From positions 102,782 through 166,781 of the forward strand of contig CP070669.1 of NCBI GenBank assembly GCA_020351835.1: a DNA stretch of 64,000 nucleotides. The letters are read 5' to 3'. This stretch comes from Nitrospirota bacterium (GTDB lineage: Bacteria; Nitrospirota; Thermodesulfovibrionia; Thermodesulfovibrionales; BMS3Bbin05). Shown here one piece after another: positions 1,395 to 23,738 of this stretch. The translations under genes were made by a program, and so were the position numbers. The notes under the pieces were generated by a model that was not told the origin of the DNA, made no database searches, and was given only the letters and a program-made list of their open reading frames with translations. Numbering within the stretch: position 1 is the first letter of the stretch; every line of letters begins with the position of its first letter.

Positions 1395-2888
1395 CTAAAG
1401 GTCCATGTCCTGAGGGCCCCAGTTCTCTATATATTTCTTGGCAGTCCGCCTGTCAAGTCCGGCCCTCCTGGCTACGGCTTCATAGGACCCATACCTGTCG
1501 TAAAGGATCCTGCAGTAATGGGATAGCAGGGTCTGTGCATCCAGAGAGCCGGCCTTTATCCCTTCGATAATAAGGCTTTCAATATCTCCCGCAGGTGTAG
1601 AATTAAGGTCTATCTCATACCTTCGCTTTAAAAGTATTCTCCTTATGCACTGTTCAAGTTCACGGACATTGCCCGGCCAGGAGTAATCCTGAGGGACCTG
1701 TTTCCTGATCTCCTTTATTACATTACCGGCTATCTCGTCGGCTTTATCACCAACAATACGTCTGACCATATGGTTCACAAGATCAACAAGCTCCTTAGGG
1801 TCCTCAGCTATTCGCTGGCTTAGGGTCGGGACCATTATAACATCCGAACAAAGACGGTAATAGAAGTCATCCCTGAACACTCCTTCGGCCCGGAGCCTGT
1901 CAAGGGGCCTGTTCGTGGCCGCAATGATCCTCCCGGGGAAACGCTTTTTCTCGTGGCTTCCGACAGGTGAGTATTCCCGGTCCTCCAGTACCTGCAGAAG
2001 CTTTATCTGCACCGGAACAGGCACCTCGCCTATTTCGTCGAGGAACACCGCACCATGCTTACGGCACCGCGCAAGCGCACCATCATAGTCCGAGACAGCA
2101 CCTGTAAATGAACCTTTTTTGTGTCCGAACAGTTCCGATTCAATTAACTGTTCAGGGAACTGGGAGAGGTTCATAGCCACAAAAGCACTTGTAAAGCTCT
2201 CTGCATAATGTCCCTTTTCCCTATCATAAGGTATATAAGCTGACTGCCCTATGGCCTTTGCACACATTCCCTTCCCGGTTCCGGTCTCTCCGAGAATAAG
2301 AGTAGAGTAGTCCTCCATCCTGTCCCAAAGCTCCCTTGTATAAAGTCCAATATTACTGGTAATAACATTGTTCCATAGACTTTCTCTAAGGTATACCATG
2401 CATGGACTTCTGCCTACTATTGTCTTTGCAATGAAATAGTAGGCGCGGCGCATCTGGAAGAACGCGGCGAAATAATGCAGAGCCTCTTTATCACTAAAGC
2501 CGAGCTTCCTGATCATTGATATCATTTCCTCGGCAAACGGCACCTTGCATGGAGATTCTCCCTGTGATATCTGCGATTCTATCAACTCATCGTTCTTCGG
2601 GAAAAAGATATTGTACACATGATAAAGAACCGCATTCTCGATAAGTATGCGGTCACTGCCTTCGAACTTTCTTACATCGTTCTTCCCTTCTGAAAAGAGC
2701 TTCTTAACTCCGGATGCCACCATTTTTATTATCTTTATCCTTCTTTCCTCATATGTAGAGTTAGGGGGGAAGTCTGCAAGCTTGCTGTCGGCAGATATCC
2801 TCATTTCAGAAAATGGATTGGCATGAATGACATCGGTCACATCAGACAGGAACTTTCTTTCGGAGCTGGATAGTTTACTTTTAGACAT
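1395..2888 (-). CDS. Sigma-54-dependent transcriptional activator (AAA+ plus C-terminal HTH) with an uncharacterised N-terminal domain and no receiver domain
   Basis: Walker A GETGTGKG, ESELFGHKKGSFTGA (GAFTGA-type loop), Walker B FLDEIG, WPGNVRELE, C-terminal HTH. The ORF opens at 2918, but MSKSK at 2888 is the more plausible start. Confidence 0.9.
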   Translation of the reverse strand: MSKSKLSSSERKFLSDVTDVIHANPFSEMRISADSKLADFPPNSTYEERRIKIIKMVASGVKKLFSEGKNDVRKFEGSDRILIENAVLYHVYNIFFPKNDELIESQISQGESPCKVPFAEEMISMIRKLGFSDKEALHYFAAFFQMRRAYYFIAKTIVGRSPCMVYLRESLWNNVITSNIGLYTRELWDRMEDYSTLILGETGTGKGMCAKAIGQSAYIPYDREKGHYAESFTSAFVAMNLSQFPEQLIESELFGHKKGSFTGAVSDYDGALARCRKHGAVFLDEIGEVPVPVQIKLLQVLEDREYSPVGSHEKKRFPGRIIAATNRPLDRLRAEGVFRDDFYYRLCSDVIMVPTLSQRIAEDPKELVDLVNHMVRRIVGDKADEIAGNVIKEIRKQVPQDYSWPGNVRELEQCIRRILLKRRYEIDLNSTPAGDIESLIIEGIKAGSLDAQTLLSHYCRILYDRYGSYEAVARRAGLDRRTAKKYIENWGPQDMDL

Positions 2889-3179
2889 GATGCACAAATT
2901 GTACATCCATATGCACAATATGGCAAGTTTCTCAAATATTAATTATCATGGCGGCGATCATTATTCGGCATCGACCATATTTATTTTTATCGGATCCCCC
3001 TGGCAATATCCCTCGCAAAAGGCGTCTCCTGCAGGTCAGAGCAAGATAAGTTATTGCATGTCTTGATTAATTAAAGGATATTTCTGCTATTATAAACATC
3101 TCTTCTGGAATGATCCTTTTAAAGGGTATTTCTTTAAGAGAACAAATTGAAGGGAAATAACGGAGAAGGAGGTCATTTA

Positions 3180-7909: not shown

Positions 7910-8107
7910 TCATGACCTAACAGCTTTTGTAAAATTTCTCTTTATTGCCTCTGCAGAAAGAGGGATAGCCGGCAATGTCTTATTACCTTTTTTCGCGATT
8001 ATATGTATGAACTTAGGCCCCTTCTTTCTGGATCTCAGGGCCTTATTTATTTCATTCTTATCGCTAACCGTATGGATGTTCCTAAGTCCAAATCCACCAG
8101 CTACTGC
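7910..8107 (-). pseudogene. In-frame continuation (65 codons) of the decarboxylase gene beyond the TAA at 8108-8110
   Basis: The same frame after the TAA reads AVAGGFGLRNIHTVSDKNEINKALRSRKKGPKFIHIIAKKGNKTLPAIPLSAEAIKRNFTKAVRS, then TGA at 7910-7912. It has no start codon of its own. The joined length of 374 aa fits the family. Confidence 0.7.
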
Positions 8108-9034
8108 TTAAAGGTTGGCAACTCTATTAGCAGCCGTCGGCTGATCTCCTGTCGAGCTATATACACCGTTGTCGATAAGCACAATAGTGAGGTTCCGGGG
8201 CTTCTTTGCAGCTATGGTCGAAAGAGTCGAAGGGTTCATCAGCAGACTGCCATCTCCATCAATGACCATTACCTCTTTGCTGCATGAGATGGACAGGCCA
8301 AAACCGATCGGTGTAGCCATTCCCATGCTTCCGAGCATATAGAAATTTGAAGGTTGATCTAAAATATCATAGAGTTCTTTAGCGGGGAAACCAAGATTAC
8401 AAACAACAAGCTTGCCCCTAAGGTATCTTTTGATCTCGTTAATAATTTCATATCGGGTCATTCTCCCGGGATGGATACTATTTTCCCTCTTGTCCTTTAT
8501 ACTGAAGGCTCTCCTTTCGCTGATCAGCGGGATATTGATGTGAGATCCTTCCCATACCCTGGGACTCAGCAGAAAAGCATGAATAAGGTTCTTGCTATAG
8601 ACTTTTTGAAGTGGCCCCTTGATCTTATTGATCTCTTTCGCATTCTCGATATTCGTATAGCCTATCCCCGCAGCCTTGAGCAATCCTTCCACATGTTCTC
8701 CCATCGGTACCTGAGCCGCAATAGTTTCCTTATAAACACCTCTATGACTTAAAAAGATCGGCAACGGTAGTTTATAAAATGAGGTCAGGGACAAAAGCGC
8801 ATTTATCATGTTCCCGATGCCTGAGTTCTGCACGATCATCGCGGCTCTATTCCCGGCAAGGGCTACTCCTGCCGATATGCCCACACCGGCCTCCTCGCGC
8901 GACAATCCTACATGTTCAAACTCTGATCTGACAAGCATTATCAGGTTCTTTACCCTTTCGCAGGGCAAGGTAGCTACTACGTCCACACCGCTCTCTCTTA
9001 GAATGCTGACTAGCTCTTCTTCAGGTGATCGCAT
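8108..9034 (-). CDS. Sulfopyruvate/phosphonopyruvate-decarboxylase-like TPP enzyme (fused ComD/ComE-like), ended prematurely by an in-frame TAA
   Basis: N-terminal half is ComD-like (GVDVVATLPCERVKNL...GISAGVALAG). C-terminal half has the TPP motif GDGSLLMNPSTL...LIDNG. At 308 aa it is short for this family; see the extension at 7910-8107. Confidence 0.75.
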   Translation of the reverse strand: MRSPEEELVSILRESGVDVVATLPCERVKNLIMLVRSEFEHVGLSREEAGVGISAGVALAGNRAAMIVQNSGIGNMINALLSLTSFYKLPLPIFLSHRGVYKETIAAQVPMGEHVEGLLKAAGIGYTNIENAKEINKIKGPLQKVYSKNLIHAFLLSPRVWEGSHINIPLISERRAFSIKDKRENSIHPGRMTRYEIINEIKRYLRGKLVVCNLGFPAKELYDILDQPSNFYMLGSMGMATPIGFGLSISCSKEVMVIDGDGSLLMNPSTLSTIAAKKPRNLTIVLIDNGVYSSTGDQPTAANRVANL

Positions 9035-10266
9035 ATGATGCCCTCTATATTCTCATCAGATATGTACTTTGAAATGAATATCGGTTCAACAACATGCCTT
9101 CCCTTATCTTTCTTCAGCCTCACCTCCCCACCACCGGTGATGTTGAGCAATATCTTATCGTTCCTTTTTACTTTATCTTCTTTAGTTGCCCTTAAAAGTG
9201 CTGCAACAGCAACTCCTGACGCAGGAACTATGTCTATTCCTTCCGCCTTCTCAAAAAGGTCCATCGCCTCTATGACCTCATCGTTCTCTATTCCATACAT
9301 CATACCACCCGTAGACTTTAAAGCATCATATACCCCGCCCTGAACCGAATACGCAGGATATCTGTTAGATAGTACCCTTGTGGTTATCTCAGATATAAGT
9401 TCCGGTCTTAGGTCATTCGGGGAGAGCTCACTGCTTCGGGACTCCCATGCTTTGACCATCGGCGCAAAAGGAAGGTTCTGTGCCAGGTGTAACCTGGTCA
9501 TATGCGATCCGTACTTTCCTGTCCTTAGAACTCTCTCGGCCATCTCCCATACCCCGATAGCCCCCGTTCCGCTCCCCACTGCCTGAAAGTAATGATCAGG
9601 AAGTTGCCTCATCACAGAAACCGCCTCCAGAAGAACTGCTCCGAGCCCATCCCTTTTAGCTATATTTTTGACCCCACCTTCAAAAGGCATATCCATTATC
9701 CGGGCTATCCGCTTTGCCATATCGATAGAATCTGCATAATCCCCATCCTCAATAGCGATCGTCGGAATGGCCAGTGATGATTCCAGATACCACATCTCAA
9801 GAAGGCACATCTTCGGCACTACAATGATGACAGGAAATCCGGAAATTACCGAAAGATGGGAAAAGGCCCGTGCAGTATTTCCAGCTGATGCCACTATAAG
9901 ACCCTCGACACCATTTTCTTTTGCATTTTGAAGGACTGCCGCAGCCTCGAACTCCTTGAACGTACATGACTCTATCTTTCCTCCCCTCTCAGGCCAGTAA
10001 CCGTTGAAAGCTATATAAAGGTTTTCAAGCCCTGCCGATGACGCGAACCTCTCAGACCTGAACACAACAGGGCCTGGCTGTTTGAACAAAGGGTCATGTA
10101 CTGGCAACCAGTCAAATCTCCACAGCCCTTCCCTGTCAGACCTGAAAGGGTCTTCAGATGAATATTCGGTCACTAAAAGCGATCCGACACAGTGTTCACA
10201 GAAGGCGCAATATACCTCCTGTAGTTCCTTTCCGCATTTTCTGCACCTTATATTAAAATGGCTCAT
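9010..10266 (-). CDS. Threonine-synthase-family PLP enzyme, cysteate-synthase-like
   Basis: N-terminal Cys cluster CRKCGKELQEVYCAFCEHC, candidate PLP lysine in TFKEFEA, GSGTGAIG loop, 418 aa. Translationally overlapped (25 nt) with the decarboxylase gene. Confidence 0.55.
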   Translation of the reverse strand: MSHFNIRCRKCGKELQEVYCAFCEHCVGSLLVTEYSSEDPFRSDREGLWRFDWLPVHDPLFKQPGPVVFRSERFASSAGLENLYIAFNGYWPERGGKIESCTFKEFEAAAVLQNAKENGVEGLIVASAGNTARAFSHLSVISGFPVIIVVPKMCLLEMWYLESSLAIPTIAIEDGDYADSIDMAKRIARIMDMPFEGGVKNIAKRDGLGAVLLEAVSVMRQLPDHYFQAVGSGTGAIGVWEMAERVLRTGKYGSHMTRLHLAQNLPFAPMVKAWESRSSELSPNDLRPELISEITTRVLSNRYPAYSVQGGVYDALKSTGGMMYGIENDEVIEAMDLFEKAEGIDIVPASGVAVAALLRATKEDKVKRNDKILLNITGGGEVRLKKDKGRHVVEPIFISKYISDENIEGIICDHLKKS

Positions 10267-10287: not shown

Positions 10288-11490
10288 TCAAATGCATTCT
10301 GATATAAGCTCCATGATATCTACTATCGTTATCTGTTTTTTATGACCTTTCATTGCCTCGTTAACTTTCGCATAGCATGCAGGACAACTAAGTACAAGCC
10401 TGTCAGCACCTTTCTCCACAGCCTCGTCTATTGTTAGCCTGCCCATTGCGATCGCGTTCTCATGGAATATCTTCCTGGCCGCCCCTCCCGCCCCGCAACA
10501 CCTGGAATTTCTCCCGTGTGCATCAAATTCAATAAGTTCTGCTCCATCAATATGCCTTAATACCTCTCTCGGCTCTTCTATTACACCAACACCTCTGCTT
10601 AAGTAGCATGGGTCATGGTATATGATCTTCTCTTTAAGTCCTTTGCTTAACTTCAATCTCCCTTCTTCCAATGCTTTTTTAACATACTGAGAGATGTGTA
10701 CTATCCTGAACGGCAGTTCACTTCCGTAAAAGATAGGCCAATCTCTGGACATAATGTTCACGCAGCAGGGGCAGGAACAGACAAGTTCCCTCACACCCTT
10801 TTCAGCGTAAGCACTAACAAGTTTATTGGTAAGCTCCTCAAGCATTTCATGCTGCCCAGTTATAAAGAGCGGAAAGCCGCAACATACCTCTTTATCCGCA
10901 GAAAGCATTGTGAACGGTTCACCTATAGCATCAAGAACTAAAACATCGCTCCTTACCATCGGATGAGCTTCATAAGCCCCTGTGCAGCCTGCATAGTATG
11001 CGATCTCGCTTTGCTCAGCTATCTTTATTTCATCAGGGAACCATGTCTTGAACCTTTCTTCAGCAGGTTCGTTATACGGATTTCCGGTGTCAGAAATTGC
11101 CTTCTGCATTTCACGCTGAGCACCGAAGGGGCCGATACCTCTTTTTACCATCTCCCTTCTTAAAGCCGGCCACAGCCTCTGGGTATCAAGTCCTACAGGA
11201 CATATCTCGCCACAGGCACCACAAGTTGTACACTCAAACACCGCCTCGGCAAAATCCTTAAGCAGCTTTTCATCAATATCTTTTTTGCCGAATATCCTTG
11301 CTTTCAGGCTATCAGTACTGTCAATGAACTCCTTATAGATCTTAATTTTCTCAGGTGTTGAGATGTCGGCATTTCCTGTTACCATCTGCACAGGGCAATG
11401 CTTCAAACACTCCCTGCAATCCGTGCAGCCCTTTATCTCCATGACCTGCTTTTTCGAGAGGTCTTTTATGAAAGATCTTTTATTCTTCAT
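10288..11490 (-). CDS. HdrD/DsrK-like iron-sulfur protein (2x[4Fe-4S] ferredoxin motifs plus two CCG domains)
   Basis: CTDCRECLKHCP and CTTCGACGEICP motifs. CCG motifs: VCCGFP...CSCPCC and RCCGAGG...SCPAC. Confidence 0.85.
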   Translation of the reverse strand: MKNKRSFIKDLSKKQVMEIKGCTDCRECLKHCPVQMVTGNADISTPEKIKIYKEFIDSTDSLKARIFGKKDIDEKLLKDFAEAVFECTTCGACGEICPVGLDTQRLWPALRREMVKRGIGPFGAQREMQKAISDTGNPYNEPAEERFKTWFPDEIKIAEQSEIAYYAGCTGAYEAHPMVRSDVLVLDAIGEPFTMLSADKEVCCGFPLFITGQHEMLEELTNKLVSAYAEKGVRELVCSCPCCVNIMSRDWPIFYGSELPFRIVHISQYVKKALEEGRLKLSKGLKEKIIYHDPCYLSRGVGVIEEPREVLRHIDGAELIEFDAHGRNSRCCGAGGAARKIFHENAIAMGRLTIDEAVEKGADRLVLSCPACYAKVNEAMKGHKKQITIVDIMELISECI

Positions 11491-12202
11491 GTCCCAAAGG
11501 TACGAACGTATCGTCCCGTTCTCTCGCTTCGATCATTACTATGGGGGCTGCGAGTATATGAGATGGGAGGAACAGTAAGAGCACAAGAAATAGAATATAG
11601 TGCAATAAGAACACGGGATCAAGCGGCAAAGGATTAGGATCGAATGCAAGAACTCCAAGTACGTAATGCTTGATGTCGATCACATCGGGCCTCACAAAAT
11701 ACCTCATTATCACTCCTGTTGCTCCCAAAATGAATATAACCGATACCAGAACAAGGTTGCGTACAGAGAAATACTCTCCTTTTTCGCTGATGACCAGACG
11801 AACTATAAGTATGTATAAGAGAGACAATGGAAGCACATATCCTGCATGCTTTCCTATGCAGTTAAGCTCCATTACTATCCCGGGAACAGGTTGCATAATA
11901 TACCTTAAGTGACCTAGCAATACGAGCGCAAAGGAAACATGAAAGACCCACTCTCCTATCCATAAAGCACGATTCACTCTTAACAGCCTTCTGAATAAAA
12001 TAATATCAAGTATCGCATTTAACAATATCTTCGCTTTCTTAACACGGCTCTTTGCCAGTGGTCGATAATGCGGTTCAGAATGGCCGCATACAAGTACTAT
12101 TGCAGAAATGCCTCTCCAGTAAGCAACAGCAAGAATCCCATAAGTTATTCCCGTTACCAGTATCTCCATAGCTTTACTATAGCACGTAGATCCGTCCGCC
12201 AT
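11480..12202 (-). CDS. NarI/DsrM/HdrE-like integral membrane (putative cytochrome b) subunit
   Basis: 240 aa with about 5 hydrophobic helices carrying conserved-looking His residues (HVSFALVLLGHLRY, LLHYILF, PSHIL). There is an 11-nt overlap with the HdrD/DsrK-like gene. Confidence 0.7.
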   Translation of the reverse strand: MADGSTCYSKAMEILVTGITYGILAVAYWRGISAIVLVCGHSEPHYRPLAKSRVKKAKILLNAILDIILFRRLLRVNRALWIGEWVFHVSFALVLLGHLRYIMQPVPGIVMELNCIGKHAGYVLPLSLLYILIVRLVISEKGEYFSVRNLVLVSVIFILGATGVIMRYFVRPDVIDIKHYVLGVLAFDPNPLPLDPVFLLHYILFLVLLLFLPSHILAAPIVMIEARERDDTFVPLGHEE

Positions 12203-12226: not shown

Positions 12227-12553
12227 TCAGTCCCTGCTATCATCCGATATAAATTCGATAGATACTTTCCTGGGAACGGCAAGTCCAGCCTCGACCTCGA
12301 GCGCTTTAAGGATGCCTGCCGGTACCGGGCAGGACACATGCTTCAAGCAGTTAGAGCCCGCTGAATAGACAGGATTATCAAGGATCCTTTTGAAGGCATC
12401 CATGAAGGCCAGTTCAGGCAGTTCCTTACCAAGCTTTTCGACCATCTCGCAGTCAGAGGTTATTTTTAGATCGAAAACCTTGTCCTCTTTCCTGGTGACC
12501 TCTATCTCGGTCAGCAGGCCACATGCTCCCGGATCTATTTTTATCTTTGTCAT
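12227..12553 (-). CDS. Small Cys-containing hypothetical protein
   Basis: 108 aa with four Cys (GACG, SDCE, SNCLKHVSCP). Embedded between the activase gene and the membrane redox genes. Family not recognised. Confidence 0.6.
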   Translation of the reverse strand: MTKIKIDPGACGLLTEIEVTRKEDKVFDLKITSDCEMVEKLGKELPELAFMDAFKRILDNPVYSAGSNCLKHVSCPVPAGILKALEVEAGLAVPRKVSIEFISDDSRD

Positions 12554-12608: not shown

Positions 12609-14585
12609 CTACCCCTTAACCGTCACCTGAGCATTGCTCTTTTCAAGCATGTTCTTCAGGTTAGGGAAGTTGTCCTTCATGTGGGGTATATGCATCGCCA
12701 TCATGAACTCCTTTTCGAACTCCGGTTCAATAGCTATCTCCACAAAGTTCACCCATCGGGCCTTTTCCTTGGCCTCCAGCCTCTTCGCCCTGCTCAGCAA
12801 GGTCATTATGGCTCCGTCCCCGGCCGCGTTACCCACGGCGTATACTTTCTCAATATCACAGTCAGGGAACATCCCCAGCGTTAACGCCGATCTTGTATCT
12901 ATATGGCTGCCGAACGCACCTGCCAGTACAACCCGGTCAAGTGTCGTTATACCGAGCTTTTTCATCATAAGCTTTGCTCCGGCATAAAGGGCTCCCTTTG
13001 CGAGCTGAAGTGCACGCACATCTCCCTGGGTTACCGTAATATCCGCTCCGATCGATGTCTCATCAGCCCATGCAAGTACGTATTCAGGTTTGCCGTCTGC
13101 ATCCAGTCTTACCCTGGGTGTATCCAGATCCTTCACTATCTTGCCGGATTTGTCTATTATTCCTGCTTTGAACATTTCGGCGATAACATCGATTATCGCT
13201 GATCCGCATATTCCCTTCGCATCGATCTTCTCTATATGGGTATGCCAGTCCGCCTTTCCTATCACCTTGTATCTGGGCTCCTTTGTGTCCGGATCTATCT
13301 CTACTGTTTCTATCGCTCCGGGTGCAGCTCGCATTCCGAACTTTATCTGTGCTCCTTCGAACGCCGGGCCTGTAGCACAAGATGTTGAGTATACCCCGTT
13401 CCTGTTCCCGAGAAGGAGCTCACCGTTAGTTCCAATATCGATTATCAGGACCATATCATCTACGTTATAAGGTTCTTCAGCAATAAGCACACCTACATTA
13501 TCAGCGCCAACGAAACCCGCCTCTATAGGAAGCACATGCACATAGGAAGCGGGATTTATATTTATATTAATATCGCGCGCCTTAATGTCCATCGGGTCCT
13601 GCACGGCCGGAATAAATGGTGACCTTCCTATATACACCGGGTTAAAACCAAGGAATATATGGTGCATTGCGGTATTGAAAACGACGGTCATGTCCACTAT
13701 CTGGTGTCCTCCGTCCGACCCGTCTATCTTAATCTCTGAGGTTATCTTGTCGATTATTTCGTTCAATCCTCCGATTATCGCTTTCTGCATTGTCTCAAGA
13801 CCGTCACTGTTCATCATCGCGTATGTTATCCGGGACATGACATCTTCACCATATGGTACCTGAGGGTTCATCATGGACTCGGTATTAAGCACCTTGCCCG
13901 TAACAAGGTCGCATAGATAAGCTGCAACTGTTGTCGTGCCGACATCAATAGCGATACCATATGTATTCTCAATGAATCCAGGTTCAACCTTTATTATTTC
14001 CCTGCCTTCCCTGACTGTCACGGTACACTTCCATTCACCTTTGCGCAGAGCATCCTGAAGGTCCTTTTGTACCACATAATCTATGATGATCCCCTCTAAT
14101 CCGTATTGCTCCTTTAAGAGTTCTCTGATCCTTTCATAATCTCCCTTTGAGAGATCATGGAGTGTCGGGGGCTCCATCTCTATGAAATATTTCCTCACGG
14201 AAGGATCTATAGGAATGGTTATATCTTTTGCCGCTTTTCTTACGATCTGCTTTCCCGCCCGTGATTTCTCGGGAACAAATAGCTTCACATCTCCATGAAC
14301 GGTAGCAGCACACGCAAGCCTCATCTGAGGCCCTTCCTCAGATTTTATGAACTTTTTTTCAACTTCCGATAATTCGCTCAGATGCGACATCCTGGAGTCC
14401 ATTGCGTCCTTCTCAAAGTATCCTTCCTCTACCCTGACCTTGCATTTCCCGCATGTACCCTTTCCGCCGCAGATGGATTCAAGGTCAACGCCAAGACCCT
14501 GTGCTGCCTCAAGAAGCGTCTTGTTCTCCTCTATTTCACCCCTGCTTCCAGAGGGTTGAAAGTTCACTTTATATTTCTTGCTCAT
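12609..14585 (-). CDS. Corrinoid reductive activase (RamA/AcsV-type: [2Fe-2S] ferredoxin plus ASKHA ATPase)
   Basis: N-terminal plant-type ferredoxin motif CGGKGTCGKCKV...LACA. Actin-fold phosphate motifs GIAIDVGTTT and IDIGTNGE. 658 aa. Confidence 0.85.
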   Translation of the reverse strand: MSKKYKVNFQPSGSRGEIEENKTLLEAAQGLGVDLESICGGKGTCGKCKVRVEEGYFEKDAMDSRMSHLSELSEVEKKFIKSEEGPQMRLACAATVHGDVKLFVPEKSRAGKQIVRKAAKDITIPIDPSVRKYFIEMEPPTLHDLSKGDYERIRELLKEQYGLEGIIIDYVVQKDLQDALRKGEWKCTVTVREGREIIKVEPGFIENTYGIAIDVGTTTVAAYLCDLVTGKVLNTESMMNPQVPYGEDVMSRITYAMMNSDGLETMQKAIIGGLNEIIDKITSEIKIDGSDGGHQIVDMTVVFNTAMHHIFLGFNPVYIGRSPFIPAVQDPMDIKARDINININPASYVHVLPIEAGFVGADNVGVLIAEEPYNVDDMVLIIDIGTNGELLLGNRNGVYSTSCATGPAFEGAQIKFGMRAAPGAIETVEIDPDTKEPRYKVIGKADWHTHIEKIDAKGICGSAIIDVIAEMFKAGIIDKSGKIVKDLDTPRVRLDADGKPEYVLAWADETSIGADITVTQGDVRALQLAKGALYAGAKLMMKKLGITTLDRVVLAGAFGSHIDTRSALTLGMFPDCDIEKVYAVGNAAGDGAIMTLLSRAKRLEAKEKARWVNFVEIAIEPEFEKEFMMAMHIPHMKDNFPNLKNMLEKSNAQVTVKG

Positions 14586-14621: not shown

Positions 14622-15281
14622 TTATGTCGCAACCGACCGTTGTCTCCTTTCATTGCCGTTCCTGCCGTAAGGGCAGATGTTTATACATAACCCGCAATTC
14701 GGCTTGTCATTCACCGCTTTAGAGTTCTCCTTATACGACCTGCATCGTTCTGTCATTATAAGTTCCGGAAAAGGCTCTTTCCTGGACCATGTATCACCTG
14801 TGATAGCCTTTGATGGGCAGTGCTCAACACAAAGCCTGCAATTACCGCAAAGGCTCTCCCTTATAGGTTCATCGGCCTTAAGAGGCGCATCTGTCAGTAC
14901 CGTCGCTAATGAGAGCCTCGGACCAAATCTTTCACTGATGAGAAGTCCGTTCCTGCCTATCCACCCCAGTCCGGCACAGGTTGCCGCCACTTTATGAGTA
15001 AAAAGCGGGTACAACTTCGATTGGAACTTATCCTTGATCCTGTCCGAATCCGGAGGAATACAAAAGTATCTGTGTCCCATGTCCTTAATATAAGATGCGG
15101 CAACTTTTTGGATAATGCCGATCTTTTCCAGTGTGTTCTCTTTAAGGTTACCTTTGATCCCTATAGAAATAGCCTTTCCAAGATGACTGATGTCCTCTTC
15201 GAGAGCCTCTTCAACAACGGCAAAGCCTACTATAGTGGCCCCTTCATCCAGCAGTATCTTTCGAAGGTCCTCGCCGATCAC
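14622..15281 (-). CDS. Short QueG/RdhA-family protein with 2x[4Fe-4S]
   Basis: GLGWIGRNGLLISERFGPRLSLATVLTD, followed by CGNCRLCVEHCP and CGLCINICP. Only 219 aa. There is a 4-nt overlap with the corrinoid protein gene. Confidence 0.7.
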   Translation of the reverse strand: MIGEDLRKILLDEGATIVGFAVVEEALEEDISHLGKAISIGIKGNLKENTLEKIGIIQKVAASYIKDMGHRYFCIPPDSDRIKDKFQSKLYPLFTHKVAATCAGLGWIGRNGLLISERFGPRLSLATVLTDAPLKADEPIRESLCGNCRLCVEHCPSKAITGDTWSRKEPFPELIMTERCRSYKENSKAVNDKPNCGLCINICPYGRNGNERRQRSVAT

Positions 15282-15970
15282 TCCTTGTTCTTTCCTTCTG
15301 CATCATCTTTCATCTCTTTGAGGGAACCTATCATCTTGATAGCATCAGAAAGCGCGTTAGTAGCATCATCCGCATACCCGTCCGCTCCCCATTTCTCTGC
15401 AATATCCTTTGATACCGGGGCACCACCTATCATTATTTTCACGTTCGGGTTCTTTGCCTTGAGGTTATCAATTACCTTCTGCATTCCCACCATGGTAGTT
15501 GTCATCATGGCAGACAAACATACGAGTTCCGAATCCGTCTTTATCTGTTCTTCAACGAACTGGTCAAGAGGGACATCACGCCCAAGGTCATATACCTCAA
15601 ATCCCGCGACATCGAACATCATCTTCACAATGTTCTTGCCTATGTCGTGCACATCTCCCTCGACCGTCCCTATCACCACTGACCCTTTAACCCCCAGGTC
15701 AAGCTGCTCAACGTGAGGCTTAAGTATATCCAGGCCGGCATAAAGTGCGTCCGCGCACATTAAAAGCTCCGGGACAAAGTATTCCTGAGCCTCGAACAAC
15801 TTCCCTACCTCCTGCATACCTACTACAAGTCCATCGAAAATGGCATCATTGGCATTTATACCTTCATCCAGGACCTCTTGTGCCCCCTCCTTGGCGGTAT
15901 CTTCATCATATTCTATGACCGCCTGCTTCAGCTTCTCCAGAAGCTCCTTCTTTCTCTCTTCTGTCGCCAT
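15278..15970 (-). CDS. Methyltransferase cognate corrinoid protein (B12-binding)
   Basis: Helical cap domain followed by GTVEGDVHDIGKNIV (DxHxxG), LSAMMTTT and IMIGGAP. 230 aa. Confidence 0.92.
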   Translation of the reverse strand: MATEERKKELLEKLKQAVIEYDEDTAKEGAQEVLDEGINANDAIFDGLVVGMQEVGKLFEAQEYFVPELLMCADALYAGLDILKPHVEQLDLGVKGSVVIGTVEGDVHDIGKNIVKMMFDVAGFEVYDLGRDVPLDQFVEEQIKTDSELVCLSAMMTTTMVGMQKVIDNLKAKNPNVKIMIGGAPVSKDIAEKWGADGYADDATNALSDAIKMIGSLKEMKDDAEGKNKE

Positions 15971-15973
15971 TTC

Positions 15974-17008
15974 TTACCTCCTGTGTTCTTTTACTGTGTC
16001 TATCATTGCTTTAAAATTCTCGGGCGGTACTGTAGGCCAGATATCGCATCCGGGCCATACCGCGCTAACTCCGTCATCTATACATTTTGTGATAGCTTCC
16101 CTTATGAGGTCAGGTGTCCCTGCAACGAGCACATTATAGGGATCAAAGTTCCCGAACACTAAAGCATCATTTCCAAGCTTCTTTCTGGTCTCCGTAATAT
16201 CGTTCTTTTGGTCAACACTAATGGCGTCTGCCCCCGACTCCATCATGAACCCTACGATATCATTTGTCTTACCGCACACATGAACCACGGATGGGACATT
16301 AAGCTCTTTGATGATATTTTGCAGGTGGGGCAGGATCAGGTTCTTGAAGACCCGGGGACTCAGGACATCGGATGTCGCTCCCATCTCCCTTACCGTAATG
16401 AAATCTATCCCCGCATCTTCATATACCTTAGCTACCTTAACTATAACTCCTGACAATATTTCAAGGAGCTTTCCCACCTTATCAGCTTTCTTAAAAGATA
16501 GTTTCAGCAGGTCATTAAGCTCCATTATCTGTCCGGCCAGGGTAAAAGGTCCAAGCACATATGAACCTACCGGTATCTCACCCCCGGCCTCCTTTTTAGC
16601 TATTCCTATTGCCTCGTGCATCAGGGGAACCCTGCCCCTCCCGACCAGGTCTTCAGGAACTGATATCTCCATCTCATCTTCGTTCTTTATCACCTTCTCC
16701 TTAATGGTCGGATAAAGAAGGTCCTCGGAGTGAGGATAGGTGTTGATAACCGCCCCAAGTGCTTCAGCTTCTACACACAGATCGAACGGGAGCACACATG
16801 AATCAAATCCGAACAACTTCGGCGTAGTCACCGCCGTCTCAGCCATCTGCTTAGCGTCGAGATGGACCTGGGCAAACTTATATCCCAACTCGTCGAGACC
16901 GGTAGTAGTAACATTTCCCATACCGCTGAAACAGGGTACCCTGTCGGTCTCCTCTTTCTTGAATAGCCTGGTTACTCTGTCTTTAGAGCTCATCTCAGAT
17001 ACAGACAT
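15974..17008 (-). CDS. Uroporphyrinogen-decarboxylase-family methyltransferase (MtaA/MtbA/MtsA-like)
   Basis: 344 aa. Candidate Zn ligands VVHVCGKT (HxC) and VWPGCDIWP (C), as in methylcobamide:thiol methyltransferases. Confidence 0.85.
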   Translation of the reverse strand: MSVSEMSSKDRVTRLFKKEETDRVPCFSGMGNVTTTGLDELGYKFAQVHLDAKQMAETAVTTPKLFGFDSCVLPFDLCVEAEALGAVINTYPHSEDLLYPTIKEKVIKNEDEMEISVPEDLVGRGRVPLMHEAIGIAKKEAGGEIPVGSYVLGPFTLAGQIMELNDLLKLSFKKADKVGKLLEILSGVIVKVAKVYEDAGIDFITVREMGATSDVLSPRVFKNLILPHLQNIIKELNVPSVVHVCGKTNDIVGFMMESGADAISVDQKNDITETRKKLGNDALVFGNFDPYNVLVAGTPDLIREAITKCIDDGVSAVWPGCDIWPTVPPENFKAMIDTVKEHRR

Positions 17009-17064: not shown

Positions 17065-18027
17065 TTATTTCTTTGCTTTCTTCCTTCCTCCGCCTTCTTC
17101 CAGCTTCTGTATGAACTCGGCAAACAGCTTTCTGATCGGCAGGTCTTCGTTCCCGGGTATCATTCCGGTCTCATCATATATAAAAGTAGACAACAGAGTA
17201 TGGGCAGTAGCCACTGCAGGGAAGATCCTCGAAGCCGTTACAATGGGCCCGTAGAAGTTAAAATCGCTCCATATGGCCGACGCCATTCCCTGAGCTACCG
17301 CATCCATGGCCCTGAAACCGTCGAGTCCCCATATCTCCCTGGCCTCTTTCCACATATGTGTGCCATTAGAGTATGCCCCCCCGCACGGCAGCCCATGCTT
17401 TTCCTTTATTATCCTGTTAGCTATCAACGAGAATGATGTCGACGGCAGGTTCATCACCGAGGTATCTACGATCACCGTATCAAAGCCATCTGCGCCCTGG
17501 GAATAGATCGATTCGAACGAGCTTAACCTTCCTGCAGGTGACTGGTCCTGGTCGTCGAACGCCTGAATAACGACATGTTTTATTCCGAGGTCCTTCAGCC
17601 GCTGGACCTGACCTTTGATGTCCTTATCCCATGGAGTAATGCTGTTATAAAGGAACTTGTCCTGTACTCCAAGCTTTGCGACATACTCTGTTGCCTTAGC
17701 CCTTTTCTCTGCTACCCACATGTCTATCCCAAAGGGCATCTCTGTCGTCTCGAGAAAGAAATCTATATAAACCTGTGCTTCCTCAGGTGTATTAGCAACC
17801 ATTGCGACCATACCGGGGATCCCGGTAGACCGGTTGAGCTCTTCCTGCTTTCTTATAAGCTCTGCTGCTCTCTTGCGGTCGAACTTGCCCGACTTTCTGT
17901 CATCAAGGATCCTGTCCTTATTATGGAACATGGACGCGATCATTAAAGGCGGGTTTTCCCCGGGTCTTCCCCCGACCTTGATCCCTGCTATATCAAAAAC
18001 CTTCTGCTCTGACTTTAAATTGAACAT
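17065..18027 (-). CDS. MtrH-like methyl-pterin:corrinoid methyltransferase
   Basis: N-terminus MFNLKSEQKVFDIAGIKVGGRPGENPPLMIASMFH closely parallels archaeal MtrH (MFKFDKKQEVFEIGGVKFGGQPGEYP...). 320 aa. Confidence 0.85.
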   Translation of the reverse strand: MFNLKSEQKVFDIAGIKVGGRPGENPPLMIASMFHNKDRILDDRKSGKFDRKRAAELIRKQEELNRSTGIPGMVAMVANTPEEAQVYIDFFLETTEMPFGIDMWVAEKRAKATEYVAKLGVQDKFLYNSITPWDKDIKGQVQRLKDLGIKHVVIQAFDDQDQSPAGRLSSFESIYSQGADGFDTVIVDTSVMNLPSTSFSLIANRIIKEKHGLPCGGAYSNGTHMWKEAREIWGLDGFRAMDAVAQGMASAIWSDFNFYGPIVTASRIFPAVATAHTLLSTFIYDETGMIPGNEDLPIRKLFAEFIQKLEEGGGRKKAKK

Positions 18028-18126: not shown

Positions 18127-18642
18127 TCAGTAAACGCCGTGATCGAACTTTGTTTCGGGTAGATATTCCCAATCCTCTCCATTACGGTATTTCGCCTCAA
18201 TATCGAGACACTTCAGCGCGTACTCGAACGCATACGGAATGCCTGGTCCGCCCGGAACAAAGCCGGCCAGTATCATTCCTACTGCAGCCGCTTCAAAGAT
18301 CTCTCCGGTCGTAGCTCCCGCGTCTATAGCCGGAATAACGTGGATGATACACCTCGGTGAGCAGTATGCAACGCCTCCGGACATGAACATCAGCTCCTTT
18401 ACCTTCTTTGAGAGCGCACCGTCGCCGAAGATGCTCTCATAGAAATCAGCGAACGTCTTTCCGGGGACAGGTGTTACAGTGTTGATGATCTTGAACATGC
18501 GAGGTACAAAACCGCAATGTTCCTTCATGTACGCATTGACTTCATCTACCGACATCTTTGATGCATCTGACATAAGCTCCTCCTTCATTTCATTTCCCGG
18601 CTCACCGGCCAGAAATTTCTTAATGCTTTCAAAAATACCCAT
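18127..18642 (-). CDS. Carboxymuconolactone-decarboxylase/AhpD-like family protein
   Basis: AYCSPRCIIHV, a CxxxCxxH variant of the AhpD CxxCxxxH core. The ORF opens with GTG at 18648, but ATG at 18642 sits 5 nt after a perfect GGGAGG. Confidence 0.7.
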   Translation of the reverse strand: MGIFESIKKFLAGEPGNEMKEELMSDASKMSVDEVNAYMKEHCGFVPRMFKIINTVTPVPGKTFADFYESIFGDGALSKKVKELMFMSGGVAYCSPRCIIHVIPAIDAGATTGEIFEAAAVGMILAGFVPGGPGIPYAFEYALKCLDIEAKYRNGEDWEYLPETKFDHGVY

Positions 18643-18728
18643 TGTCACCTCCCTTTACGGGAACTTAAGCTACCTGCCTCACCTCCTCTCATATACAAAC
18701 ACACATAATATTTGGATTTCGTTCCTCT

Positions 18729-19757
18729 TTATAGCTTCCACTCTGTTGCAATCTGAATGAACTTCTGAATGTTCTCATAAGGAACCGTTGGCGGGATGTC
18801 GCATCCCGGCATAAGAACAAAAGCACCATCGGTACCGGCTGTTTCTATTATTTTTTTGCATGAGCTCTCAACATCGCTTGCACTTCCCTGCAGCATTATC
18901 TGTACAGGATCTACGTTGCCGCCAAAACATATTTTGCCGTGCAATACTTCTTTAGCCTTTGCTATATCGGTCTTGTGATCAAGACTGATGCAACTGGCAC
19001 CAGTGTCAGGGAAAAGCTCAAGCCTGTCAGTAGTATTCCCGCAAATATGCAAAAGAGTATGTGCGTTCTTCGATTTGGCCCAGTCTGTGAACTTCTTGAG
19101 GGCTGGCACAGCGAACTGCTCGAACTGTTTTTTGGAGATAAGATCACCCGAAGCGGTCGGGTCTGCAAGGCTTATCACCTCAAGCGTTCCGTCGCTGACT
19201 ATGGGTTCGTAAAGATGGATAAGGAGATCACATGCAAAATCAACTATCTTCTCGACGAGAGCCGGTTTCTTGAACGTAGCCTTCATCATGGCCTCTTCAC
19301 CGACAAACCGGGCACCAAGTGTAAAAGGTCCCCACGCAGTGAGGGTAACGATATATTTATCGCCTATCTCCTTTTTTGTTCTCCGCAATGCCTCTTTTGT
19401 AGTATTAATGGTCTCGTCTTTATCAATATCTTCAATATTAAGACCATCTATCTCTTCTTCTGAACTTATGAGATGATCTTCGAGATCAGGGGCACCTACC
19501 TCCCGGAACTTGATCTTTCCTCCAAGAGCTGAGGCATGAAAATTGTTGTATCCCGACCCTGCATAAACGATATCGCACTTCAGCCTCTCACTGTTCTCTA
19601 CGAGCACTTTTGTCATCTTGCCGGCATCCTTTGAGATCTCTTCAAAGGTAGTCCCTGAGCTGTTAATGCTCCACATGCCTCCGCCAAAAAGAGTTACCGG
19701 TACCCTTTCAGGCTTGCCCCCTTCATAAGCCTTTAGAATTATTTCCCTCGGTGTCAT
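18729..19757 (-). CDS. Uroporphyrinogen-decarboxylase-family methyltransferase (MtaA/MtsA-like), paralogue 2
   Basis: 342 aa. LLHICGNT (HxC) and LMPGCDIPP (C) are candidate Zn ligands. Strong SD (GGAGGAG). Confidence 0.85.
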   Translation of the reverse strand: MTPREIILKAYEGGKPERVPVTLFGGGMWSINSSGTTFEEISKDAGKMTKVLVENSERLKCDIVYAGSGYNNFHASALGGKIKFREVGAPDLEDHLISSEEEIDGLNIEDIDKDETINTTKEALRRTKKEIGDKYIVTLTAWGPFTLGARFVGEEAMMKATFKKPALVEKIVDFACDLLIHLYEPIVSDGTLEVISLADPTASGDLISKKQFEQFAVPALKKFTDWAKSKNAHTLLHICGNTTDRLELFPDTGASCISLDHKTDIAKAKEVLHGKICFGGNVDPVQIMLQGSASDVESSCKKIIETAGTDGAFVLMPGCDIPPTVPYENIQKFIQIATEWKL

Positions 19758-19769: not shown

Positions 19770-20135
19770 TCAAATAAGAACAGAACTTCTGTTTCGAATT
19801 ATTTCTTTGAACATTGCCAGGAAACTGTCTATCTCTTTGGGAGATCCTGTGACATATACTCCATCTTTTAGCCTGGTCTTTTCCGATACGCTATCTGTCA
19901 AAAGAAATATCGGGGCAGATGAGATCGTATCCTTCATTATTGAAGCAGCCTCATACGCATTAAGTCCTATATTCCTTGTGTCGAGTATTACTGCGTCGTA
20001 CCTGTTTGCAAGAAACTCTCTTACTGCATCTGATATATATTCGATAGTAACAACCTCTATACCCCCGTCCCGGATAGGACCATACAGCTCCTTTATAAGC
20101 AACGGTTCCTGAGAGCACAGAAGGATCCTTTTCAT
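19770..20135 (-). CDS. Stand-alone receiver-like (CheY-fold) protein, degenerate
   Basis: 121 aa. AVILDTR retains an acceptor-like Asp, but the N-terminal acidic pair and the usual MP motif are missing. Confidence 0.6.
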   Translation of the reverse strand: MKRILLCSQEPLLIKELYGPIRDGGIEVVTIEYISDAVREFLANRYDAVILDTRNIGLNAYEAASIMKDTISSAPIFLLTDSVSEKTRLKDGVYVTGSPKEIDSFLAMFKEIIRNRSSVLI

Positions 20136-20149: not shown

Positions 20150-20165
20150 AGCAACTTCAATGCCA
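20150..20165 (-). promoter_or_regulatory. Sigma-54 (-24/-12) promoter
   Basis: Minus strand reads TGGCAT-TGAAG-TTGCT, with exact GG-N10-GC spacing. It is the only full match I found by eye on either strand. It is intergenic, directly upstream of the 13-gene operon. Confidence 0.6.
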
Positions 20166-21314: not shown

Positions 21315-23738
21315 CTAACTTAATACTTTTCTTACCACCGCTAAAAGGTCTCCAGGGAGTATAGGTTTTGATATGTACTCAAATCCATCCCCGGGATTTA
21401 TCCTGTCAGATATAACATCCTCACTATATCCGCTCATAAAACAAACATGGATATCCGGATCTATTTTTCTGATCGCTTCCATTGCCTCTTTCCCATTATA
21501 TCCAGGCATCAACACATCAAAAAGAAGCATATCTATCGAGTCACTGTTTTCTCTGTATTTATTTATCGCATTCAGACCGTCTGTCGCCTCAATAACCGTA
21601 TACCCTGCGGCCTCAAGAATTGCCTTAATTGCACCCCTTACCGCTTCATTATCCTCCGCAAGAAGGATCGTTTCTGTGCCGTGTGATACGTTCAATGGTT
21701 TACTATCTGATATCATTTCGGTTCTTATGCTATCAACAAGTGGAATATATATAGTAAAAGTTGTGCCCTCGTTCATTTTGCTGTGACATTCGATGCTTCC
21801 ACCGTGCTGAGTAACGATCCCATATGCCATTGAAAGCCCAAGTCCTGTTCCCTTCCCAGCCGGCTTTGTCGTAAAGAACGGCTCAAAGATATTCTCTATC
21901 ATAGATTCCTCGATCCCTTCACCGGTATCTGCAACTATTATTCTTGCATATTCTCCAGGCTTGACAATCTGACTTTCAGAGAGGTTATCCGTCATTAAGA
22001 CTTTGTCTGTCGATATGCTTAATGTCCCCCCTTTTGGCATTGAATCACGAGCATTTGTTGCAAGGTTGATCAATACCTGGTGAATTTGACTTGCGTCCAC
22101 AAGAGAAATGAGGGGTTCCTGAGCAGTATAAGTTTTCAGATCAATGTCTTCACCGATTATAGGATGCAGCAGTTTTTCAAGATTTGCTACGATCACATTA
22201 AGATCTTCCCCTTTTAAGTTAAGTGTCTGCTTTCTGCTATAGGCAAGAAGCCCTTGCGTTAGTTCAGAAGCTCTTTCCAGGGTGTTCATAATACTATCTA
22301 ATGCTTCTTCTGCAGATGATGCATCTAACTTCTTCATCGCCAAAAGTGATGTATAACTCATTATCGCCTGGAGCATATTGTTAAAATCGTGTGCGATCCC
22401 ACCAGCCAGCAGCCCAATGGCTTCCATCTTTTGGGATTGGCGAAGCTGTTCCTCAAGTGATTCTCTTTTCTCCTCGGCTCTCTTTCGTTCTGTAATATCT
22501 CTTATAGCAGATATTCTGATCTCCTCTCCTTCCTGAGTGACTGTCCTGCCCCTTGCCTCAATGTTAATCACAGATCCATCTTTCCTGGTCGCCTTAATCT
22601 CATAAACTGAGGTGTCTTTTTGTTTCATCTTTTCTTTGACCATATCTCTATCGGTCTCATGGATCAGGTCCATTAAGTTCATCCCGACAAGCTCATCCAA
22701 TTTATATCCGAGAAGTCTTGCAAATTGATCATTAGCATCTATGACCTTGCCTTTTTTTGAGAACAGTATTCCTTCAAATGATGCATCACTTATCTTCGCA
22801 AGTCTCTCTCTGCTATCACGGAGATCATTATCGGCCATGACCCTCTCTGTAATATTATGGACCATTGAAATAACACCAAGGAATTTACCATCCTTCTCAA
22901 CCGGTGTATTATGCCATTCACATGTTATGGTTTTGCCATCTCTTGTAAGATTTTCATTTATGCTGTAAACTGGCATTCTATCAGAAATAATATGTTCCCA
23001 TTTTTCCTCGATCTCAGGCCTTATATCTGAGTTAATGATCAGATCATAAGCATGTTTTCCTAATGCCTCATCCGCTGAATAACCAAAGATCTTTTCGGCC
23101 TCGGGATTCCATAATTCGATCCTGAACTCAGGAGTCCACATTATACATCCCGTAGGCATTTTATCAATAATGAGTCTGAGTTGTTCCCTGCTTTCATTTA
23201 GTGCCATCTCAATCTCTAATTGGAGTTTTTGCTTGAGTCCCTGTTCAGCAAGTATCTCGGTCAATTGAGCTAATACTATAAGATTCTTTTTATGCTTATC
23301 CTCAGTGATTATTGGAACTCTACTCAATGCATCAATGTATGCTTCTTCATCATACCCATATTTTTTAGCAAGCTTTCTAAAGCTATCCTCATCAGGCTCG
23401 TCAAGGAAGAACTGTCCAGTGAACGCGTTCCCAAGGTGGTCACCATCCACTATGATCGGAGTGGCGGTATCTACAAGTCCATGCGGGCATTTATATACAA
23501 CCTGCTCCTTCCCCTTAGAGAGCTCGCTGACCAAGTGTGTATCACTTTTAATACACACTTTTTCAGACTTCGGGTTAGCTCTGTGAAACTTCGTGCATAT
23601 GTCCTGCCACGCGGTCCCGGTCAAAATATTGCCTTCTATATCAATAATGGCAGACGGGATACTGTAAAGCTCATCAAGGTTATCCAGCAATGCTTGAAGT
23701 TTTGGAACATCTATTAATTCTGATAGTTTATAGTTCAA
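21315..23738 (-). CDS. Hybrid sensor histidine kinase with N-terminal PocR domain, two PAS domains, HisKA-HATPase and C-terminal receiver
   Basis: PocR-like region: [15 protein letters not shown]...CTKFHR...[18 protein letters not shown]. Also the H-box [17 protein letters not shown], and a receiver with [14 protein letters not shown]. Confidence 0.88.

Follow-up and report, generated by a model that had tools for sequence, protein, structure and literature searches.

Gene pair for cysteate synthase and sulfopyruvate decarboxylase

We analyzed a 64-kb stretch of contig CP070669.1 (assembly GCA_020351835.1), called the window below, and in it a pair of genes for members of the cysteate synthase and sulfopyruvate decarboxylase (ComDE) families, together with the operon that ends in this pair. 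An earlier note on this DNA, made from the sequence alone, had described a threonine synthase (ThrC)-family reading frame that overlaps the start of a decarboxylase gene by 25 nucleotides (nt); we recovered the frame, its coordinates and the overlap. The note also took the pair to be bacterial, which agrees with the presence in the window of a bacterial-type rpsG (ribosomal protein S7), GGDEF and PilZ proteins and sigma-54 activators, and with homologues named as Nitrospirota or Thermodesulfovibrionales; the host is a Thermodesulfovibrionia-like member of the Nitrospirota. Scans of the whole window for tRNA genes and Rfam families returned no matches. The features of the pair, in window positions, are as follows.

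9010..10266, minus strand: cysteate synthase, a ThrC-derived pyridoxal phosphate (PLP) enzyme of 418 amino acids (TIGR03844; match to PDB entry 9k3c)
7910..9034, minus strand: fused ComD/ComE sulfopyruvate decarboxylase, a thiamine pyrophosphate (TPP) enzyme of 374 codons, interrupted in the window (TIGR03845 and the ComE model)
8108-8110, minus strand: in-frame TAA in ComDE, where locus L001 has TCA (Ser309) at the same codon

The 418-amino-acid open reading frame (ORF) opens with ATG, and a ribosome-binding site, AGGAAAG, lies 5-6 nt upstream. Among the curated NCBIfam models, the protein passes TIGR03844 (EC 2.5.1.76) with 468.1 bits against a cut-off of 324.9 (E = 1.9e-140), the aligned region being residues 4-395 of the protein and positions 1-394 of the 398 in the model. 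All seven threonine synthase models fail, at 29-91 bits against cut-offs of 167-421; the best of them, NF006050, reaches 91 bits against 303, and TIGR00260 reaches 42 against 167. A sequence search of the PDB gave the cysteate synthase 9k3c as the top match (E = 1.1e-85), with the best ThrC at 6e-12. The preference for cysteate synthase over ThrC in the earlier note is therefore upheld, and the protein does not group with canonical ThrC.

Two sequence features picked out in that note proved to be shared across the family. The lysine of the TFKEF motif, suggested there as the PLP lysine, corresponds to K104, a residue that pairs with the SFKE lysine of 9k3c and the SFKD lysine of ThrC 2zsj in sequence alignment; across 31 diverse members of the family its conservation is 90% or higher. 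The N-terminal cysteine cluster comprises C8, C11, C20, C23 and C26 in a zinc-ribbon-like segment; among the same 31 members C8 never varies, and conservation of C11 and C23 is 90% or higher. We conclude that the ORF encodes a genuine cysteate synthase family protein, with the predicted activity of converting O-phosphoserine and sulfite to cysteate and phosphate.

The decarboxylase gene starts at 9034, which produces the 25-nt overlap, and its ATG is preceded by AGAGGG; in relatives the two genes overlap by a similar 25-28 nt. A TPP motif, GDGSLL...NLTIVLIDNG, is visible in the sequence. Scored against the ComD (alpha) model TIGR03845, the window ORF reaches 185 bits (cut-off 148). Its score against the ComE (beta) model is 174.5 bits against 221.5, and the match breaks off at position 116 of the 182 in the model, since the in-frame TAA cuts the ORF short. 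This stop ends ComDE after 308 codons; the frame then continues for 65 ComE-like codons to a second stop at 7910-7912.

The same region is present in an independent assembly, GCA_975955985.1 (locus L001), which is 99.06% identical to the window over 8298 nt with no gaps. There the codon reads TCA (serine) and the protein is an intact 374 amino acids long, passing both the ComE model (232.7 bits versus 221.5) and the ComD model (187 versus 148). Besides the nonsense change, the two ComDE genes differ at nine synonymous and two non-synonymous sites. Since the allele of a near-identical strain is intact and other differences are few, the TAA is either a recent nonsense mutation or an error of sequencing or assembly. 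We also considered recoding of the TAA and rejected it: the near-identical strain has a sense codon at that position, and TAA is the codon of neither selenocysteine nor pyrrolysine. The earlier description of a fused ComD/ComE-like TPP enzyme thus stands, on the ComD model and on the ComE score of the intact allele; the interruption had gone unnoticed.

A simpler account would make the first protein an ordinary threonine synthase, or the pair part of a phosphonate system with a phosphonopyruvate decarboxylase. The PF00291 fold is indeed common to ThrC and the 418-amino-acid protein, and a PDB search with ComDE found no solved sulfopyruvate decarboxylase; the nearest chains are labeled 'putative phosphonopyruvate decarboxylase' (E = 3.5e-23), a match that does not discriminate between the two activities. 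Against this stand the failed ThrC models and the ComD and ComE models passed. The intact L001 protein likewise fails the phosphonopyruvate decarboxylase model TIGR03297, at 207 bits against 312.5. In addition, we examined the gene neighborhoods of the pair in relatives, taking 10 kb on each side of a match and comparing loci by tblastn with the window proteins, and found no PEP (phosphoenolpyruvate) mutase or other phosphonate genes there. The decarboxylase is thus not grouped with phosphonopyruvate decarboxylases near phosphonate genes, the outcome that the earlier note had named as damaging to its proposal. Judged by the curated models, both an ordinary ThrC and a phosphonate system are excluded, and we regard this account as hardly credible.

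Distribution and archaeal affinity

The best 120 homologues of the cysteate synthase are 66-100% identical to it, and those with names are nearly all Nitrospirota, Thermodesulfovibrionales or Nitrospiraceae. Metagenome homologues number in the thousands, and thousands of Nitrospirota homologues at 66% identity or more carry the automatic annotation 'cysteate synthase'. Scanning one genome per GTDB species yielded no fewer than 570 members of the family. The closest come from about 20 species of Nitrospirota, with 54-70% identity in cysteate synthase, followed at 41-50% by Methanosarcinales, Methanoperedens, anaerobic methanotrophic archaea (ANME), Methanocellales, Methanomicrobiales, Methanomassiliicoccales and one member of the Hydrothermarchaeota, and then at 40-45% by Spirochaetota, Cyanobacteria, Calditrichales and Aminicenantes. 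Among representatives of 50%-identity clusters, 193 match at E <= 1e-30, and a single one, at 62%, exceeds 48%; the Nitrospirota clade therefore appears to fall in one such cluster.

What is conserved around the gene differs between these groups. Every Nitrospirota locus with enough flanking sequence (L002-L024, 53-70% identical in cysteate synthase) keeps a collinear, same-strand cluster of 12 genes that ends in the pair, L015 alone being without ComDE, while archaeal loci keep the adjacency of cysteate synthase and ComDE only. In other bacterial phyla the cysteate-synthase-like gene has no adjoining ComDE and falls in a separate clade of the tree; in one case an AONS-type aminotransferase gene comes next, as in sulfonolipid (capnine) synthesis.

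We built neighbor-joining trees of cysteate synthase and of ComDE, which are simple distance trees without support values. In both, the Nitrospirota are monophyletic and the Hydrothermarchaeota locus L042 is their nearest neighbor, and in the ComDE tree they stand beside the archaeal ComDE genes that flank cysteate synthase. The identity margin that makes L042 the neighbor is small for cysteate synthase (48% versus 46-47%) and clearer for ComDE (49% versus at most 44%).

An operon of methyltransferase and heterodisulfide-reductase-like genes

The pairing of the two genes had been recognized before; what had been overlooked is the conserved operon, with methyltransferase and heterodisulfide reductase (Hdr)-like genes, that ends in this pair. 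Cysteate synthase and ComDE are the last two genes of a same-strand array of 13, which begins with a receiver-like gene. Among the other 12 genes, spacing in the window ranges from an 11-nt overlap to a gap of 99 nt. The array upstream of the pair, in order of transcription and with the putative promoter first, contains the following features.

20150..20165, minus strand: sigma-54 type -24/-12 element TGGCATTGAAGTTGCT, one mismatch to TGGCAC-N5-TTGCW
19770..20135, minus strand: receiver-domain-like protein, first gene of the array, with only weak response-regulator matches
18729..19757, minus strand: second, more divergent MtaA/UroD-family methyltransferase, 342 amino acids (TIGR01463, 177 bits, below the cut-off of 235)
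18127..18648, minus strand: AhpD/CMD-family protein with conserved C96-SPR-C100-IIH103 (PF02627)
17065..18027, minus strand: MtrH-family methyl-corrinoid:pterin methyltransferase, the pterin being tetrahydrofolate or tetrahydromethanopterin (NF002142, 350 bits versus 287)
15974..17008, minus strand: MtaA/CmuA-family methylcobamide:thiol methyltransferase, 344 amino acids, with a His-Cys-Cys zinc site (PRK06252, TIGR01463)
15278..15970, minus strand: methyltransferase-cognate corrinoid (B12-binding) protein (TIGR02370, 211.5 bits versus a cut-off of 215.3)
14622..15281, minus strand: small QueG/reductive-dehalogenase-like iron-sulfur protein with two 4Fe-4S motifs (TIGR02486, 70 bits, and QueG, 62 bits, both below cut-off; Fer4_16)
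12609..14585, minus strand: RACo-type ATP-dependent reductive activator of corrinoid proteins (Pfam Fer2, RACo_linker, Raco_middle, RACo_C_ter)
12227..12553, minus strand: small DUF6951 protein (PF22263)
11480..12202, minus strand: membrane b-type cytochrome of the NarI/DsrM/HdrE type (weak DsrM match, 57 bits; no curated model passed)
10288..11490, minus strand: HdrD/TfrB/DsrK-like iron-sulfur protein (two Pfam CCG domains and Fer4)

The two MtaA-related proteins differ in how closely they match characterized enzymes. The 344-amino-acid protein passes the PRK06252 subfamily model 'methylcobalamin:coenzyme M methyltransferase' (267 bits versus 244) and TIGR01463 (249 versus 235), and fails the equivalog model of Methanosarcina MtaA (243 versus 400). 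It matches M. mazei MtaA (4ay7) at E = 1e-44, and its H243, C245 and C321 align with the HxC...C zinc ligands of that enzyme. The 342-amino-acid protein keeps the His-Cys-Cys site as well, with H237, C239 and C319 conserved. In the MtaA/UroD superfamily this site is the signature of S- or Se-methyltransferases (PMC10418091).

Immediately upstream of cysteate synthase, at a distance of 21 nt, lies the HdrD-like gene, which the cytochrome b gene overlaps by 11 nt. The HdrD-like protein has two ferredoxin-type four-cysteine motifs and two CCG motifs, and their cysteines are conserved in 19 species, yet it passes no curated NCBIfam model: the best score, with TfrB, is 191 bits versus 385, and DsrK gives 96 versus 400. 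The cytochrome has four conserved histidines (H88, H98, H201 and H215), and a homologue of it shows a weak match to Nitrate_red_gam.

For the remaining genes the assignments are at the family level. In relatives the corrinoid protein carries the B12-binding and B12-binding_2 domains. The QueG/reductive-dehalogenase-like protein, 219 amino acids long, is similar to QueG and the reductive dehalogenases in their iron-sulfur region and in some of their cobalamin region, and its gene is kept between the corrinoid protein and RACo genes in nearly all relatives. In loci L004 and L005 a gene for FolD (methylene-tetrahydrofolate dehydrogenase/cyclohydrolase; 7141-8082) is inserted between the DUF6951 and cytochrome b genes; folate is therefore indicated as the pterin of the MtrH-like protein, which ties the cluster to folate-bound one-carbon units. 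The 99-nt gap between the AhpD-like and MtrH-like genes contains, at 18079-18116 on the minus strand, a 17-bp GC-rich stem-loop with a T-rich tail, which could be an internal attenuator, a terminator or an RNA-stability element of the operon.

The operon is probably driven by sigma-54. The element TGGCATTGAAGTTGCT lies 30 nt before the receiver-like gene, and L019, a divergent species, has TGGCACGGAACTTGCT at the same -30 position. Our assignment rests on this conserved position and not on the number of motif matches, since the window has 4 where 1.4 are expected by chance, which is not significant alone. The receiver-like gene itself is 12 nt upstream of the first methyltransferase gene, and in L019 and L017 a homologue likewise stands before the first methyltransferase. 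Three sigma-54 activators are encoded in the window (1395..2918, 27355..28692 and 52511..53854).

Genes related to cobalamin accompany the cluster in the window and elsewhere. A CobO-family gene of the cob(I)alamin adenosyltransferase type (6281-6793, minus strand) and a gene for a CobW-like GTPase (20316-21218, plus strand) flank the operon, and L002 has CobO and TP_methylase genes nearby.

A proposed route to a sulfonate thiol

To explain these observations together, we propose the following. Cysteate synthase would form L-cysteate by exchanging the phosphate group of O-phospho-L-serine for sulfite. Transamination of cysteate to sulfopyruvate would fall to a housekeeping aminotransferase with its gene elsewhere in the genome, and ComDE, coupled in translation to cysteate synthase, would then produce sulfoacetaldehyde by decarboxylation. 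This sequence of reactions would correspond to the start of the phosphoserine ('type 2') route to coenzyme M (CoM) of Methanosarcinales, and the pair would have been gained as a unit from archaea by an ancestor of the Thermodesulfovibrionia-like Nitrospirota clade. From sulfoacetaldehyde the cell would make CoM or a very similar two-carbon sulfonate thiol, to be used as methyl acceptor or carrier by the methyltransferases of the operon, with the HdrD/cytochrome b module recycling the disulfide. What the analysis establishes is family membership, the coupling of the two genes, the conservation of the operon and the affinity to archaea; catalytic activities, final product and the use made of it are inferred. 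We give this explanation, taken as a whole, about an even chance of being right.

Several features point to thiol or sulfonate chemistry in the operon. The MtaA-like protein passes the cut-off of the CoM subfamily, and both methyltransferases retain the His-Cys-Cys site. The CCG motifs of the HdrD-like protein and the four histidines of the cytochrome are kept. Finally, genes for SsuA-like proteins are linked to the pair in three lineages, and Ssu-type transporters are inserted in the cluster in L002 and L015.

Disulfide-reductase-type proteins adjoining the pair would also fit a different use of the same product, in which CoM is made as a low-molecular-weight redox thiol and the HdrD/cytochrome b and AhpD-like proteins keep it reduced. 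One study of methanogens (PMC12713407) reports that CoM gives protection from oxidative stress on overexpression of comDE. We find this use quite unlikely, as it leaves unexplained the strict collinearity of the pair with two thiol-type methyltransferases, a corrinoid protein, RACo and MtrH.

The transporters in L002 (4975-7559) and L015 (7319-9899) are orthologous ATP-binding cassette (ABC) systems of the Ssu/NMT1 type, each with a signal-peptide-bearing binding protein, a permease and an ATPase, and their point of insertion within the cluster differs between the two loci. In M. acetivorans CoM is imported by an Ssu-type transporter. ComDE homologues also take part in sulfolactate degradation in Roseovarius, and the cluster could thus be read as serving sulfonate breakdown, with an imported sulfonate converted through sulfopyruvate and sulfoacetaldehyde to sulfite, the electron acceptor of a sulfite-reducing host; relatives come from sulfate-reducing lineages (PMC5812927). 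The reaction of the biosynthetic cysteate synthase, to which our protein is orthologous, uses up sulfite, however, and no desulfonating enzyme of the Xsc, IslA or CuyA type is present in the window or the flanks. Breakdown is accordingly a very unlikely function in our estimation.

Several observations weigh against the proposed synthesis and use of a sulfonate thiol. The premature stop interrupts ComDE in this genome, and L015 keeps the rest of the cluster without a ComDE gene within 10 kb downstream of cysteate synthase. The ABC transporters embedded in the cluster are equally compatible with an external sulfonate as the real substrate. No known CoM-consuming enzyme (Mcr, the alkene pathway) was seen. 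In the 344-amino-acid MtaA-like protein the position of M. mazei MtaA Arg70 is occupied by valine; an engineering paper counts Arg70 among six residues lining the modeled substrate pocket. No role for Arg70 in sulfonate binding is documented in the literature consulted, and we draw no conclusion from the substitution. For the related bacterial mlp clusters, the proposed substrates are methyl sulfides or selenides, with no involvement of CoM (PMC10418091). Lastly, the enzyme expected to form the thiol is absent from the neighborhood: a tblastn query with the MMP16 protein of the Methanosarcina locus L033 gave no MMP16/ComF homologue either across the 64 kb of the window or, for the Nitrospirota loci, in the 10 kb on each side of the pair, a copy elsewhere in the genome being possible.

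The missing thiol-forming step

In M. acetivorans the genes for cysteate synthase (MA3297), ComDE (MA3298) and MMP16 (MA3299), the main CoM synthase, are adjacent, and this arrangement has been shown genetically to make CoM (PMC11844431). We found MMP16 next to the pair in 17 archaeal loci. With no MMP16 at the Nitrospirota locus, the thiol-making step is unaccounted for, and it is the weakest link of the CoM reading. The earlier note had stated that the operon holds neither an aminotransferase nor a known thiol-forming enzyme, and our family scans say the same.

This gap raises the possibility that sulfoacetaldehyde goes to another end product (taurine, isethionate or sulfoacetate) as a compatible solute or building block, and that the linkage to methyltransferase and Hdr-like genes is regulatory or historical. 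Taurine and isethionate were already named in the earlier note, no thiol-forming enzyme of a known type lies nearby, and subsurface communities have been proposed to make taurine anaerobically by way of cysteate (PMC12019592). Nevertheless, the operon encodes no sulfoacetaldehyde reductase, dehydrogenase or aminotransferase; an order of 12 genes kept across 53-70% protein identity is hard to explain without a shared function; and the linked AhpD-like and IscU/SufE-like proteins suggest thiol and sulfur chemistry. We consider such an end product unlikely.

Loci of a second lineage also have the pair without MMP16. L086 and L087 hold the closest cluster representative outside the Nitrospirota (P0122, 46% identical). 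Their gene order is cysteate synthase, ComDE, SsuA-like, PNPOx (on the opposite strand), orf169, AhpD-like and DUF6951, and neither these loci nor L042 contains an MMP16 homologue. The AhpD-like protein is 51% and the DUF6951 protein 39% identical to that of the window, and the AhpD-like motif CSPRCI(I/V)H is common to both. The ComDE of L086 is closest to that of L042 and then to those of Nitrospirota. In L042, the Hydrothermarchaeota locus, the genes for cysteate synthase, ComDE and the SsuA-like protein have overlapping reading frames. A gene for a PNPOx-like flavin-binding protein directly follows this three-gene operon on the opposite strand in both lineages (L086 13259-13675; L042 9415-9828); the protein is 52% identical between the two and has no counterpart in the Nitrospirota cluster.

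The window itself encodes an orthologue of the SsuA-like protein at some distance from the operon.

23883..24797, minus strand: SsuA-family-like protein, 304 amino acids, cytoplasmic, without a signal peptide (TIGR01728, 89 bits over the full length, below the cut-off of 163.5)

Orthologues stand directly after ComDE in L042 and L086/L087, and a few kb from it in L002, L007, L013, L018, L020, L071 and L072 (five Nitrospirota and two Methanoregula loci). The sequence begins directly with the mature fold, and we rejected a role as a periplasmic binding protein because a signal peptide is missing. In the window the gene lies near the operon, among sensor kinases (21315..23738 and 24866..27358) and one of the sigma-54 activators (27355..28692). 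The protein could be the ligand-sensing part of the regulation of the operon.

The DUF6951 protein has the conserved residues C11 (in a G-A-C-G motif), C35, H72 and C75. An AlphaFold2 model built from 43 sequences has a mean pLDDT (predicted local distance difference test) of 87.8. When this model was compared with the PDB by Foldseek, the best 17 matches were all IscU, SufE, CsdE or SufU, and the matches are weak (best E = 0.04, probability 0.85, TM-scores 0.4-0.5). A sequence search of the PDB gave no match, and an hhalign comparison with E. coli IscU was not significant and aligned the A-C-G motif only. The weak Foldseek matches, together with the pattern of three cysteines and a histidine, make an IscU/SufE-like carrier of sulfur or clusters a lead for this protein. 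By association only, the AhpD-like, DUF6951 and SsuA-like proteins are candidates for the thiol-forming step.

A more far-reaching version of the CoM reading can be put together from these candidates. A non-methanogenic clade of Nitrospirota would finish the archaeal cysteate route with a new, MMP16-independent thiolation involving DUF6951, the AhpD-like protein with its CxxxC motif and the cytoplasmic SsuA-like protein. CoM would be the methyl carrier of a soluble Mtr-like system made up of the MtrH-type, corrinoid and MtaA-type proteins, and a quinone-linked HdrD/cytochrome b pair would recycle its disulfide, which would amount to a bacterial CoM-dependent methyl metabolism without methane. 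We regard this version as possible and on the whole doubtful.

Comparison with known systems

Among the closest known systems are the type 2 CoM genes of Methanosarcinales, which share with our locus an orthologous cysteate synthase (41-50% identity), a fused ComDE (38-44%), the gene order and the tight coupling. The differences are the bacterial host, the lack of MMP16 in the neighborhood, and the methyltransferase/Hdr-like operon, which is foreign to the archaeal locus. The module of L042 and L086/L087 is nearer in sequence, with the closest cysteate synthase and ComDE (48-49%), and resembles the Nitrospirota locus in the absence of MMP16 and in the linked cytoplasmic SsuA-like gene. However, methyltransferase, corrinoid, RACo and HdrD/cytochrome b genes were not seen in those loci, and the SsuA-like gene, translationally coupled to ComDE there, is about 14 kb away in the window.

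As a bacterial methyltransferase system, the operon can be compared with the type 1 mlp clusters described by Kountz and Balskus (PMC10418091). Both have several His-Cys-Cys MtaA-like proteins, a corrinoid protein and a RACo/Ram activator, both occur in anaerobic bacteria, and S- or Se-methyl chemistry is proposed for both. The likeness is at the family level, and the mlp clusters are without the pterin methyltransferase, cysteate synthase, ComDE and HdrD/cytochrome b; the paper mentions neither Nitrospirota nor cysteate. The HdrD/cytochrome b module likewise resembles HdrDE of Methanosarcina, DsrMK of sulfate reducers and TfrB in having a four-histidine b-type cytochrome and a protein with two ferredoxin-type motifs and two CCG domains, although the latter scores below the TfrB and DsrK cut-offs, as given above.

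If CoM is made, the end product would be the same as that of the bacterial pathway in Xanthobacter (XcbB1-E1; PMC9457059). That route starts with a ComA-type phosphosulfolactate synthase acting on PEP, and its enzymes are entirely different (PMC9457059); among the window ORFs compared with Pfam or NCBIfam models, no match to the ComA-type or XcbB1-E1 families appeared. The cysteate synthase homologues of Spirochaetota, Cyanobacteria, Calditrichales and Phycisphaerae, and those of the sulfonolipid type, belong to the same family (40-47% identity) but have no adjoining ComDE.

Significance

In the literature we found no description of the pair in Nitrospirota, of its operon or of the absence of MMP16, and two key Nitrospirota papers make no mention of corrinoid, methyltransferase, CoM or sulfonate. 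At the level of the single gene the assignment is not new, because automatic annotation already says 'cysteate synthase'. The nearest published concept is that of the mlp clusters, which involve neither CoM biosynthesis genes nor Nitrospirota. To our knowledge, CoM is known only from methane- and alkane-metabolizing archaea and from a few alkene-oxidizing bacteria, the latter with unrelated enzymes.

Archaeal CoM biosynthetic genes are present here in widespread subsurface and sediment Nitrospirota, as a stable part of an operon that also encodes methyl-transfer and heterodisulfide-reductase-like proteins. One practical consequence is that 'cysteate synthase' and 'CoM methyltransferase' matches in metagenomes cannot be used as markers of methanogens. 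If the product is CoM, the range of this cofactor would extend to bacteria of the sulfate-reducer type, these Nitrospirota would have a new role in the cycling of methyl-sulfur compounds or methyl groups, and specific candidates would be at hand for another way of carrying out the last step of CoM synthesis, which is still under debate. The operon suggests that the 'methanogen' cofactor CoM, or a close relative of it, may be made and used by bacteria that are not methanogens.

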